7,207 nt of DNA from a virus (lineage: Duplodnaviria > Heunggongvirae > Uroviricota > Caudoviricetes): the IMG/VR virus record IMGVR_UViG_2675903559_000012, one strand, 5' to 3'. The position numbers are program-made. Positions within the stretch are counted from its first letter, which is position 1. The number at the start of each line of letters is the position of its first letter. Shown here piece after piece: positions 1-7,207 of the stretch.

Positions 1-3000
1 AACAGATGTCTGGAAATATAGGGGCAAATCCACTGCCATTCCCAGGGATATAGTTATTTCAACGGCCCCGCGGTGGGGTTAAATGAAAAAACAAATTGAG
101 GGTATGACAATGAAAAAGTATTAGCTCTGGTTGTTGCCGCTGCTATGGGTCTGTCTTCTGCCGCCTTTGCTGCAGAGACTGCGACCACACCTGCTCCGAC
201 TGCGACGACCACCAAAGCAGCGCCGGCGAAAACGACACATCATAAAAAACAGCATAAAGCAGCACCTGCCCAGAAAGCGCAGGCGGCTAAAAAGCATCAT
301 AAAAATACGAAAGCTGAACAGAAAGCCCCTGAACAAAAAGCGCAGGCAGCGAAGAAACACGCCGGGAAACACAGCCATCAGCAACCGGCAAAACCTGCTG
401 CACAACCCGCAGCGTAAGTTTTCAACAGTAATGCTGGCGCGCCCCCTCGCGCCTGAAAATTACGGTGCTAAGCGGGTAACGTTTAGCACCGCCTTTAGCG
501 GAGGGTAGTATGGTGGGCCGTTATCGCTTTGAGTTCATTCTTATCATCCTTATTTTATGCGCACTGATTGCCGCCCGTTTTTATCTTTCCTGACTGTAGT
601 TATCTGATTTTACTCCCACTTTCATCCCGTCCCGTCTATAGTATTTATGAGGGTTTGCTTTTAATAATCATAATTACCCACCAGAGTGTGATATGCGTAC
701 AACCATTGCTGTAGTGTTGGGTGCAATTAGTTTGACGTCTGCTTTTGTGTTTGCAGATAAACCAGACGTTGCCAAATCGGCAAACGATGAGGTCAGCACC
801 CTGTTTTTTGGTCATGATGATCGTGTGCCAGTGAATGACACGACCCAATCACCGTGGGATGCGGTTGGGCAACTGGAAACGGCCAGCGGCAATTTATGTA
901 CGGCGACGCTGATTGCACCCAATCTGGCATTAACGGCAGGACACTGTTTATTGACACCTCCAAAGGGTAAAGCCGATAAAGCAGTGGCGCTGCGTTTTGT
1001 GTCAAATAAAGGTCTTTGGCGCTATGAGATCCACGACATAGAAGGCCGCGTTGATCCGACACTGGGAAAGCGGTTAAAAGCAGATGGGGATGGTTGGATT
1101 GTACCTCCCGCAGCCGCGCCGTGGGACTTCGGATTGATTGTGCTACGTAATCCCCCTTCTGGCATTACACCGTTGCCGTTATTTGAGGGAGATAAAGCCG
1201 CGCTTACTGCCGCATTAAAATCGGCTGGCCGTAAAGTAACTCAGGCGGGATACCCTGAAGATCATCTCGATACGTTGTACAGTCATCAAAACTGTGAAGT
1301 GACTGGCTGGGCGCAAACGTCGGTGATGTCACATCAGTGCGATACCTTGCCGGGTGACAGCGGTTCGCCTCTGATGTTGCATACCAATGACGGCTGGCAA
1401 TTAATTGGGGTGCAAAGTTCGGCTCCTGCCGCGAAAGATCGCTGGCGCGCCGATAACCGGGCCATTTCTGTTACCGGTTTTCGCGACAAGCTGGATCAAC
1501 TGTCGCAAAAATAATGTTCAAACGCTGCCCGACTGTGCGGGCAGCGTGTTCATCAGGCAAGTTTCACCATGATCATTCCAGCCAACAGCAAGACCAGGCC
1601 AATCCAGCCTTTACGATTTAACCGTTGACCAAACAAGATCCAACCTGCGGCTAACGTGGCGGCAATACCAAACCCGCCCCACAATGCATAAGCGACAGAC
1701 AAGTCGATCCCTTTAACGGCCTGAGAAAGCGCACTAAAGGCAGCCAGCACCGCCGCCAGGGAGAGCAAGCCAAATATTTTGCGACGAAAGCCGTCAGAAA
1801 ATTTCAAAAAGACGTTAGCAACGATTTCCAGCACGATTGCCAATGCCAGCCAGGCGGCGTGAACCCATTCAAACTGCGCCATGGTTCACCTCCAGTTCAG
1901 GTTTACGCGCTTTACGGGTACCTGATTTTATCAACACAATCCCGGCGACCAGGGTGGTTAACCCGGCAATTTTCATCAGCGATAAACTTTCGTCGAATAA
2001 CAAAACGCTAAACAAGGTAATAAATAAAATACCGATACCTTCCCACAGCGCATAAGCTACGCCTAAGGCGATCTTTTTAACGGCGAAAGAGAGAAATATA
2101 TACGACAGAGAAATCATCACCAGCATTAAAATAAAGCCGCCATTTCCCTCACTGACGCTCGCCCATTTCATTGACAGCGTACCGGTAATTTCTGTAGCAA
2201 TAGCCAGGCCTAATAAAATCCAATAAATATACATTGTCCTTCTCCTGCAAGAGAATTATTTTAATTTTCGCTTAATTCAGCGAAACCAAAGTAAAGTGGT
2301 CAAGCCCCGCGCATAGGGCAAGCTTAGGCAGAAGAAAGGACTAAAGCGCGTTGCGCCAGTGCTGCTCACCTACGAGCAAGATAGTGGATGAGGTACGAAG
2401 ATGGGTAAATGTTGAAAATAACGTCCTGAACAAATTGTCCATAATATTACAATTATCCGCAGTGTTGCTTCTCGTCATCGCGGATGATAATTGTCCTCGG
2501 TAGTTGAACACGCCTGATTTGTATCATAGCTTAAGAATTAACTCAAAATATTTTCACTTCTTTACCTGAGCGGTTTGATTTTCGTTATGATGACGGAGCG
2601 AAAAAGACATTATTATTAGCAAAGGAAGAAAAAACGGGGACAAGCATGGCAAAGCCGATCATCACGCTCAATGGCCTAAAAATCGTCATTATGTTGGGAA
2701 TGCTGGTCATTATTCTCTGCGGTATCCGTTTTGCCGCCGAGATCATCGTGCCGTTTATTCTCGCATTATTTATTGCTGTTATATATAACTTATTTCACAT
2801 AACACCTTGATTTAATTAAATAATTTTCACCACAAAAAGTGCCAAAAATCGCAAAATGACTACACCAGTGACTACACCGTTCGGTGCACTGTATGAAACA
2901 ACGTGGAACAAATAGACACAAGAAATATACAGGCGGATCATCTTTCCAGGGGGAAGCGCACCAATTCATGAGGGGCGTTAATGTCGATATGGGGATCCCC

Positions 3001-6000: not shown

Positions 6001-7207
6001 GCCAGCCATTCCACGCGCGCTTTAATGGCGTTTATCTGGCGGCGCATGTTGCCAGTAATCAGGCGCATACGGCGGTAGGTAGGGTCGTTAAGCTGTGCTG
6101 GATCTTCTCCAGCCATGCGCATGATGGTTTTTGTTGGATCGATTTCGTGCTTTGGCTTCATGTAGCCAGGTTTGATTGTGCTGGTTTCGTACCCTTTATC
6201 GCGCTGAACCTGGCTACCCACCATAGGCGAACAAAACGCCGACATGGTGACTTCTTCAATGTCCAGGGTATCCAGCATGATGTTTTGGGTGCTGAATGTC
6301 GCCACGTTCGGGAAAAACAGCGTGGTAAACAGCGGACTGAATTTAAATTCCGCAATATCCCCGCGATTCAGGTACGCAAAAAGCTGGTTAGTGTTAAGTG
6401 CCATTGCTTTTACTGTCATTATTCACCCCCATAATTTTTATGCATCCCAAGCGCCGCAAGTAAATAAGAGCGCACAAGTGAACCTATCGACGGCTCCGGC
6501 GTCATCAGCGGATCCAGTCCAGCTGCCACGCCAGCCTCATAGTTTTTTTTGTGGCGCTGCTTGAGCACCTCCACGATTTCGGGGCTTATGTACACCGAAA
6601 CACCGCCTTTTTTCTCTTCAGCCATAGTAAGAAATTCCTCTTTGACTTAAAAAATCATAACTGGATGTTCATCCAGATCTGATTATAATCATGATTGCAT
6701 TTTATGCAATGATGTTGAGTTGTGTTGCAAATTATGAAATGATGATCCCGATCATGTGTGTCAGTGCACCAAAAAAAACCTCATATGCAAAAGCCCGATA
6801 AGATGCCTCCTGTACTTATCGGGCTTTTTTTGGGTACAAAAAAGCCGGATTACTCCGGCTGTTGATTAGCTGCCTGGGTAATTACGCCATATTTCATCGC
6901 TTACACCATCTATACTCATTTCAGCATAAGTGCGATCGACTGCCTTTCTCAGGTCTCCGAAGTTATCCGGCGGCTCCGGTGGCCTCTGTGCCTTCCTGGA
7001 ACATTCCAGCCGTCGCATCGTAACCTGATGCCGTTCCTTGTCTGTCTCCACCAGCTGCATGACTTCACCCCATCGCGCCGCCGCCCTCCGGTAAAATCCT
7101 TTCGCCTCGAGTTCCTCCGCTATGCGGTCATGTATCATCGCCTGACTCTCCGGTTTTTACGTTGATGGTTGTTACCTGTTCCGCTTCGGCAATCTCCCGT
7201 TCTGTCA

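Follow-up and report, generated by a model that had tools for sequence, protein, structure and literature searches.

A probable terS-type phage-inducible chromosomal island of the EcCICFT073 family at the tqsA site

The DNA described here, IMG/VR virus record IMGVR_UViG_2675903559_000012 (Duplodnaviria; Heunggongvirae; Uroviricota; Caudoviricetes), is a single stretch of 7,207 nucleotides, referred to below as the window. From its junction with host DNA to its end, the window very probably holds the third farthest from the integrase gene of a phage-inducible chromosomal island (PICI), one of the classical Gram-negative kind that belongs to the terS subtype of the EcCICFT073 family and is integrated at the tqsA site. 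The small terminase (TerS) of this island is predicted to bring the large terminase (TerL) of a helper phage to the nicking site cosN. A first-pass annotation, made from the sequence alone, had recognised the logic of a satellite that keeps its own cos and small terminase and borrows TerL, portal and tail; the gene content supports this core reading. The same annotation considered that the element might belong to a poorly described or new lineage. It does not: it has proteins 97–99% identical to those of EcCICFT073, the terS form was described in 2018, and the terS form and the tqsA site are both already known. The element is correctly filed as an ordinary, widespread PICI. What retains interest is the terS-type packaging mechanism, a capsid module that is under selection without a knock-out phenotype in the prototype, and a cluster of hairpins in the non-coding arm.

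Gene content and relatives

All credible genes from the junction to the window end lie on the minus strand, as does every island gene, cos element and control-region signal whose window coordinates are given below. Read along that strand, the order is a gene for a PerC-family regulator, a 68-aa gene, a gpE-like gene, a gpD-like gene, a 137-aa gene, a terminator-like hairpin, cosQ, cosN, terS and a 93-aa gene, past which about 760 bp contain no credible open reading frame (ORF). No large terminase is found between terS and the junction, where only the 93-aa ORF (3548–3829) and non-coding DNA occur; the window ORFs thus bear out the earlier claim that this side of cos lacks one. Across cos stand capsid homologues and not lysis genes, again as had been proposed: a gpE-like major capsid protein (5364–6419; homologue of c1499; Pfam Phage_cap_E, E = 3e-50) and a gpD-like head decoration protein (5017–5352; homologue of c1500; Pfam HDPD, E = 2e-17). 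The gene beside cos that had been called Nu1-like matches Phage_Nu1 in Pfam (E = 2e-23).

The remainder of the island can be viewed in two full-length relatives at the tqsA site, L001 and L002, each with about 12.3 kb between the copies of the attachment (att) site. Beyond the part that corresponds to the window they carry genes for a single-stranded DNA-binding protein (SSB), a 584-aa D5-type primase, a DUF4222 protein and Icd-like proteins, a 62-aa AlpA and a tyrosine integrase. In L001, Pfam identifies Phage_integrase and Arm-DNA-bind_3 in the integrase, AlpA (PF05930, E = 5e-17), the SSB, and D5_N, DUF5906 and Pox_D5 domains in the 584-aa primase-replicase. L001 and L002 have no annotated gene for a portal, protease, head-tail connector, HNH protein, TerL, tail or lysis function, and none occurs among the window ORFs. 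The complete lambdoid structural and lysis gene set that, according to the first-pass annotation, would mark an ordinary prophage is therefore annotated in neither relative.

The core of a PICI as defined by SatelliteFinder consists of an integrase, an AlpA-type regulator, a primase-replicase, a capsid gene and a small terminase. The capsid gene, and terS beside a packaging site, are found in the window itself (Phage_cap_E, HDPD, Phage_Nu1 and cos), as is an att site; the integrase, AlpA and the primase-replicase are found in the relatives only, and the 12.3 kb of L001 falls within the size range of about 10–15 kb. A major capsid gene is carried by 21 of 29 reference Gram-negative PICIs, according to a paper later than 2018, and in EcCICFT073 c1499 and c1500 had already been named as capsid and head-decoration genes (Fillol-Salom et al. 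2018). The same study reported PerC alleles in E. coli PICIs and stated that the islands of strains IHE3034 and 18098 'encode TerS'. Since the combination of gpE-like, gpD-like and PerC proteins with cos is that of EcCICFT073 and matches the SatelliteFinder core, the gene set that could not at first be placed is the canonical PICI set. A member of the family was annotated as the cryptic prophage CP-933C/OI-51 in the O157:H7 genome papers of 2001.

EcCICFT073, present in the CFT073 genome stretch L004, has the same backbone, gene order, cosQ and cosN, and the terminator before cos. Its capsid protein is 97% identical to that of the window, its decoration protein 98%, its 137-aa protein 99% and its 93-aa protein 86%, and its integrase is 91% identical to that of L001. 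It differs in carrying rppA (c1503, 144 aa) with its own cosB, where the window has a full-length terS and a three-part cosB; in its att site (roxA/phoQ as against tqsA); and in having a second, inverted cos that this copy lacks. The PICIs of IHE3034 and Nissle 1917 share the same late module (TerS 97% identical, capsid gene 98.7% identical at the nucleotide level), but have other integrases, att sites next to clpS or tRNA-Pro, and a retained second cos. The module thus stands behind at least four integrases and att sites: tqsA, roxA/phoQ, tRNA-Pro and clpS. In 387 of 5,426 complete E. coli genomes, 80% or more of the element part of the window is present.

The presence of lambda-family genes (Nu1, gpE and gpD homologues) adjoining a lambda-type cos would also fit a decayed lambdoid prophage of which the window holds a rearranged head and packaging remnant, an explanation that had initially been given equal standing. 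However, the order E, D, scaffold-like gene, cos, terS is not that of lambda (Nu1, A, W, B, C/Nu3, D, E), and the window contains no A, W, B, C or lysis gene. Outside cos there is no nucleotide similarity to phages, and whole proteins show at most 46% identity to any phage protein. The 12-kb architecture with AlpA and primase recurs in hundreds of genomes. Nor are there pseudogenes: the six genes compared are of equal length and intact in five islands, with ratios of nonsynonymous to synonymous divergence (dN/dS) mostly of 0.1–0.3, the exceptions being a few near-identical pairs that differ by a handful of substitutions. Intact genes under purifying selection make a decayed prophage very unlikely.

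Boundary and attachment site

Window positions 33–2782 correspond to the asr-ydgU-ydgD-mdtI-mdtJ-tqsA region of E. coli K-12 at 98.98% identity, and the match ends at 2782. The element interrupts tqsA at 2782/2783, leaving a 5' fragment of this autoinducer-2 (AI-2) exporter gene (2646–2789, plus strand) that is split after codon 46; the annotations of L001, L002 and L011 list the fragment as a truncated pseudogene. The first-pass annotation had placed the insertion in tqsA, with a boundary at 2784, and had proposed a comparison with intact tqsA as a check. This comparison, made with K-12 and with the attR of L001, yielded a 9-bp att core, TGCTGTTAT (2774–2782), which is the crossover region within attL and the sole sequence common to K-12 attB, window attL and L001 attR. 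The core shows the proposed boundary to be essentially exact, within 1–2 bp. The tqsA junction occurs in 244 of the 5,426 genomes, a count that includes capsid-forming PICIs (cf-PICIs). The O157:H7 cf-PICI occupies the same tqsA attB.

Tandem TGACTACACC repeats just inside the junction (2857–2878, plus strand) are probably arm-type integrase-binding sites, and recur near attR. In L001 and L002 a 23-nt block, TGACTACACCAGTGACTACACCG, lies close to each end of the element; EcCICFT073 has analogous GGTGTAGT repeats at both ends; and the integrase of L001 contains an Arm-DNA-bind_3 domain. The window end falls inside the element, just past perC, so that the integrase-side two thirds of this copy lie outside it. 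At the other junction, seen in L001 (26305–27399), a 60-aa island ORF stops just before the 3' part of tqsA.

The cos site and its binding region

The sequence of cosN, GGGCGGCGACCT (4517–4528), is identical to that of lambda, and cosQ is GGGTCCTTTCCGG (4546–4558). For the cosN 12-mer taken alone, chance occurrence is not excluded. In an alignment of PICIs and lambdoid phages, cosQ is nearly invariant, the Nissle copy alone differing at two positions, and cosQ, cosN and about 20 bases to the right are nearly invariant across related islands and lambdoid phages. Nowhere but in the block of 70–80 bp that spans cosQ and cosN does the element match any of 50,697 phage records at the nucleotide level; there it shows 95.8% identity to PhiR5_1 (E = 2e-22) and 83–86% to phage 21 and relatives. 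On this conservation the cos site can be taken as genuine, and the earlier claim of a lambda-type cos is upheld by the match to the PhiR5_1 and phage 21-type sites. An intrinsic-terminator-like hairpin with a T-run (4566–4587) separates the 137-aa gene from cos in all PICI relatives.

Divergence from the cosB of phages and of rppA-type islands begins directly after TATTTATGA, beyond which the sequence is kept among terS-type PICIs. This PICI-specific cosB (4385–4475) is predicted to contain three R-like elements: R3 (4458–4475), an inverted R2 (4411–4428) and R1 (4385–4395). The sequence of R3 is GGTGGTTTTGTTGTTTGC, of which R2 is an inverted copy matching at 14 of 18 positions, and R1 and R2 have a perfect 11-mer in common. 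R3 contains TTGTTGTTT, including the GTTGTT that is critical in the R3 of phage N15. The arrangement reads as the 'complex' layout that cosB has in lambda and Monarch. Together, cosB and the adjacent gene form a swappable cassette, with terS here and rppA in the prototype.

The small terminase

The terS gene (3841–4383) holds the position that rppA occupies in EcCICFT073. It encodes a full-length Nu1-family small terminase of 180 aa, in which PF07471 (E = 2e-23) spans residues 33–148 and phrog_57 (E = 3e-53) residues 1–175, and which aligns end to end with the TerS proteins of lambda, 21-type phages, N15 and PhiR5_1. The two halves have different affinities. Residues 1–53 are 57% identical to N15 gp1, as against 23–26% to the TerS of lambda, PhiR5_1 and the 21-like CFT073 prophage, and the recognition helix SATAFDKWGV differs from the SVQAFDKWGV of N15 by two substitutions. 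Residues 71–165, the half concerned with oligomerisation and TerL binding, are 60% identical to PhiR5_1 Nu1 and 43% to N15. On these alignments TerS is a mosaic, in which a DNA-binding domain like that of N15 is joined to a lambdoid C-terminal half like that of PhiR5_1. The protein is 97% identical to the TerS of the Nissle island, whose accession, WP_000835278.1, is shared by the TerS of the IHE3034 island.

Comparison with the N15 and Monarch systems (Feiss et al. 2015) brings out the correspondence between the protein and its putative site. The TerS DNA-binding domain resembles that of N15 in sequence and has a near-identical recognition helix, while cosB contains the N15 R3 core and has the Monarch-like layout of R3, spacer, inverted R2 and R1. 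The differences from N15 lie in the two helix substitutions, in how far R3 stands from cosN, and in the C-terminal half, which is closer to TerS of the PhiR5_1 type.

Another possibility is that the Nu1-like protein acts in the manner of an Rpp, heterodimerising with the helper TerS and retargeting or poisoning it, in which case the helper TerS would be required. Its gene lies exactly at the rpp position beside a private cosB; Rpp is thought to derive from TerS, and TerS dimerises through the regions that Rpp uses. The protein is, however, full length, having 180 aa where Rpps have 139–154 aa, and it retains the C-terminal half that they lack. That TerL-binding half is 43–60% identical to phage TerS, whereas the identity of the protein to RppA, the Rpp with which it was compared, is 16%. 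A sequence search of the PDB with TerS, where RppC structures may be deposited, returned chance-level matches only. An Rpp-like mode of action accordingly has a small though real chance of being correct.

Of the complete E. coli genomes (5,426), 793 contain terS and 110 an rppA/B-like gene (by blastn, which would miss RppC-type genes). The terS form thus appears to be the commoner packaging module than rppA/B in complete E. coli genomes, and the Rpp mechanism that has been studied may represent a minority of E. coli islands. In the literature searched, nothing was found on terS-type cos PICIs or on the role of PICI capsid genes beyond the papers of 2018 and 2019 and a 2022 review by Murialdo and Feiss; nor was anything found on the helper range or mechanism of the terS form, the literature searched dealing with Rpp.

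Proposed packaging mechanism

By analogy with EcCICFT073, a lambdoid helper would switch on AlpA, and the island would then be excised and replicated as concatemers. The island TerS is predicted to bind the private three-part cosB through its N15/Monarch-like winged helix-turn-helix, and its conserved Nu1-type C-terminal half to recruit the helper TerL. TerL would next nick the shared cosN, and the shared cosQ would end packaging. In this scheme packaging would need the TerL, proheads and tails of the helper but, unlike that of Rpp-type islands, not its TerS, which should be dispensable if the island TerS binds its own cosB and recruits TerL by itself. Competition over TerL would be a source of interference with the helper as well. 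Murialdo and Feiss reasoned along the same lines for an Rpp given a TerL-binding domain (2022 review).

A satellite TerS that redirects the helper TerL is also found in pathogenicity islands of Staphylococcus aureus (SaPIs), among which the pac SaPIs encode TerS and the cos island SaPIbov5 encodes the capsid homologue Ccm. The sequences are unrelated, and the SaPI TerS serves headful packaging, whereas TerS here is associated with a cos site.

Several observations weigh against this proposal, or against its application to the present copy. The putative R3 lies about 9 bp farther from cosN than the R3 of N15, and in lambda spacing shifts of more than 1–2 bp are harmful. Most relatives have a second, inverted cos, comprising cosQ and cosN, which in L001, Nissle, IHE3034 and CFT073 separates the 93-aa gene from terS or rppA. 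Comparison of window 3829–3841 with the corresponding region of L001 (15055–15311), L005, L010 and L004 (43094–43374) shows that about 245 bp have here been replaced by about 30 bp without this second cos, and the removal of either cos site from EcCICFT073 cut its transfer. The integrase, alpA and primase-replicase genes lie outside the window and are attributed to the island from relatives that are 92–99% identical in the shared part. Resident prophages failed to mobilise the terS island of IHE3034 (at most 40 transductants/ml; the 2018 paper). No helper is known for the terS form, and some copies may be immobile. Helper-dependent induction, packaging, transfer and interference have been demonstrated for EcCICFT073 only. 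The replacement at the second cos also alters the last residues of TerS in this copy, and the resulting junction occurs in 109 of the 5,426 genomes.

A further alternative is a domesticated island that is no longer transferred by phages and is kept for PerC, for RgdR or for the inactivation of tqsA. Prophage induction was not followed by transfer of the IHE3034 and O42 islands, homologues of RgdR and PerC regulate motility and the enterocyte effacement locus (LEE), and this copy has lost its second cos. Against domestication, the packaging and capsid genes are intact, with dN/dS in the range already given; cosQ and cosN are identical to those of phage cos sites while the rest reaches at most 46% identity to phage proteins; and the association of the module with at least four integrases and att sites implies recent mobility. 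Immobility is on this evidence improbable, and a PICI whose TerS recruits the helper TerL is the preferred reading in what follows.

The capsid module

The gpE-like protein aligns with lambda gpE along its whole length at 43% identity, and its identity to any phage capsid protein is at most 46%. Its gene is present in 598 of the 5,426 genomes, full length in all 598, and evolves with a dN/dS of 0.10–0.16 at a synonymous divergence (dS) of 0.18–0.28. The gpD-like protein shows 36% identity to lambda gpD. The third product, the 137-aa protein (4591–5004; homologue of c1501), belongs to phrog_1999 (E = 9e-65), and its C-terminal end matches phrog_53 (E = 9e-9). Its residues 49–131 show about 37% identity to the C-terminal extremity of C/Nu3 protease-scaffold proteins of phage 21 type. 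It matches residues 416–493 of an S49/scaffold protein of a CFT073 prophage in BLASTP (E = 2e-10) and, in tblastn, Nu3 or gp6 of phage 21-like phages; a BLASTP comparison with lambda Nu3 gave no match. The island therefore encodes shell, decoration and scaffold-tail-like proteins but no portal or protease.

Upstream of the capsid gene, and translationally coupled to it, lies the gene for a conserved 68-aa protein (6419–6625; phrog_3255, E = 9e-46), which is 100% identical to its counterparts in L001 and L002 although dS is 0.06–0.14. Its identification as RgdR was considered and rejected, RgdR being a 99-aa protein (C1493/ECs1581); by position and length, RgdR presumably corresponds to the 99-aa DUF4222 protein encoded just upstream of the primase gene.

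The deletion of c1499 or c1500 from EcCICFT073 left both transfer and interference unchanged, and the DNA that is packaged is phage-sized (Fillol-Salom et al.). The capsid module is thus conserved and selected, yet dispensable in the prototype for transfer and interference. SaPIbov5 differs in this respect, for its Ccm makes small capsids whereas the EcCICFT073 capsid gene gave no phenotype. A bolder and rather doubtful proposal is that terS islands are TerS-autonomous cos satellites that have a packaging specificity of the N15/Monarch kind and steal TerL only, and whose shell module builds or remodels capsids of their own with their natural helpers; if this is true, they would be intermediate between classical and capsid-forming PICIs.

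A conserved control region (6626–6860) precedes the capsid module and scarcely varies among six islands, with or without perC. It contains terminator-like hairpins at 6843–6860 and about 6791–6823. The promoter and operator assignments within it are our own reading of the sequence by eye and not the output of a tool: they comprise a promoter-like TTGCAT-16-TATAAT (6682–6709) and, over the –35 position, a perfect 7+3+7 palindrome, ATTGCATAAAATGCAAT (6694–6710). By the same reading, a short hairpin with a T-run (6661–6676) stands before the ribosome-binding site. The hairpins at 6843–6860 and 4566–4587 are near-identical (GCCGGAG-A/T-AATCCGGC followed by a T-run) and bracket the capsid module. 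Together with the invariant upstream region, they suggest a separately regulated module, possibly one that depends on the helper. Speculatively, such separate control could explain the missing phenotype with the helpers tested in the prototype.

Relationship to capsid-forming islands

EcCIEDL933, the cf-PICI of O157:H7, shares with the present element the tqsA attB, an AlpA-type backbone, the terminal 93-aa gene and an arm that is 93.7% identical and contains the hairpin cluster described below. In its late region it differs, with another major capsid protein, an HK97-family prohead protease, a portal, connectors, an HNH protein, a P27-type TerS and a TerL; the present element has no more than a gpE/gpD shell set and a TerS of Nu1 type. 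At the tqsA site of the O157:H7 strain SS TX 754-1 (L011, 18075–33103) stands an element with the genes described for EcCIEDL933. The occurrence of the tqsA site and a related arm with different late genes indicates that late modules have been exchanged on a common integrase and att backbone.

The shared attB, arm and 93-aa gene, and the encoding of a capsid protein, raise the question of whether the element is itself a capsid-forming PICI or a P4-like satellite. No portal, prohead protease, connector, HNH or TerL gene is present in the window, L001 or L002, and the capsid protein is of the gpE type, whereas PGAP annotation gives the cf-PICI another major capsid protein and a prohead protease of the HK97 family. 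As to P4, cos is of lambda type, and sid, psu and delta are neither annotated in L001 or L002 nor matched by window proteins in Pfam or PHROGs. Either identity is scarcely credible, and the element is best described as a classical PICI.

A further type of late module was observed in L012 (9448–12104) and L013 (9742–12397), where a fusion of a ClpP-like protease with the major capsid protein is followed by a DUF1441 protein at the terS/rpp position.

Accessory genes and the non-coding arm

The PerC-family regulator encoded at 6866–7138 is Pch-like (Pfam PF06069, E = 1e-43). It also matches ANR, a family of small negative regulators, but weakly and below threshold, at 18.4 bits as against a cut-off of 32; this apart, the window proteins have no match in NCBIfam or PADLOC. 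Since the insertion splits tqsA and introduces this PerC-family regulator, and since related islands carry RgdR, which is known to activate the LEE, carriage may have effects on phenotypes of quorum sensing and virulence.

The last gene of the element encodes the conserved 93-aa protein, which belongs to phrog_1561 (E = 5e-56), evolves with a dN/dS of 0.13–0.34 and has no match in Pfam, NCBIfam or PADLOC. The gene is terminal in classical PICIs, cf-PICIs and PICIs with the protease-capsid fusion alike, with further copies in L011 (18795–19076), L012 (9164–9445) and L013 (9458–9739), and seems to belong to the conserved core of the wider family. A search of a species-level genome collection with the protein found a single locus, in Shigella.

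The arm downstream of this gene contains four strong hairpins or palindromes within 170 nt (3096–3265), three of which have the form ACCCAAA-N-TGGGT and are spaced about 26 bp apart. The cluster folds with z-scores of –8.6 (minus strand) and –10.1 (plus strand). The cluster is found downstream of the 93-aa gene in L002, in the cf-PICI of L011, and in L012 and L013; it is absent from L001, CFT073, Nissle and IHE3034. The whole window contains no credible Rfam family, its single match reaching 26.8 bits against a gathering score of 208, and five aligned E. coli copies of the cluster are too alike to show compensatory changes. Among the possible roles of the cluster are those of a non-coding RNA, of an array bound by protein and of an insulator. 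On a bolder and rather doubtful reading it could be a cis element or non-coding RNA, hitherto unrecognised, that several PICI lineages have in common.

Three 18-nt direct repeats of the AATATCAGCGGGTTAGCG type are located in the arm and the end of the 93-aa gene (3353–3370, 3401–3418 and 3536–3553); an excision or regulatory protein may bind there. The repeat block as a whole (3353–3553) is common to all relatives, and motifs of the same type were recognised by eye in the arm of EcCICFT073 (L004, 43650–43830).

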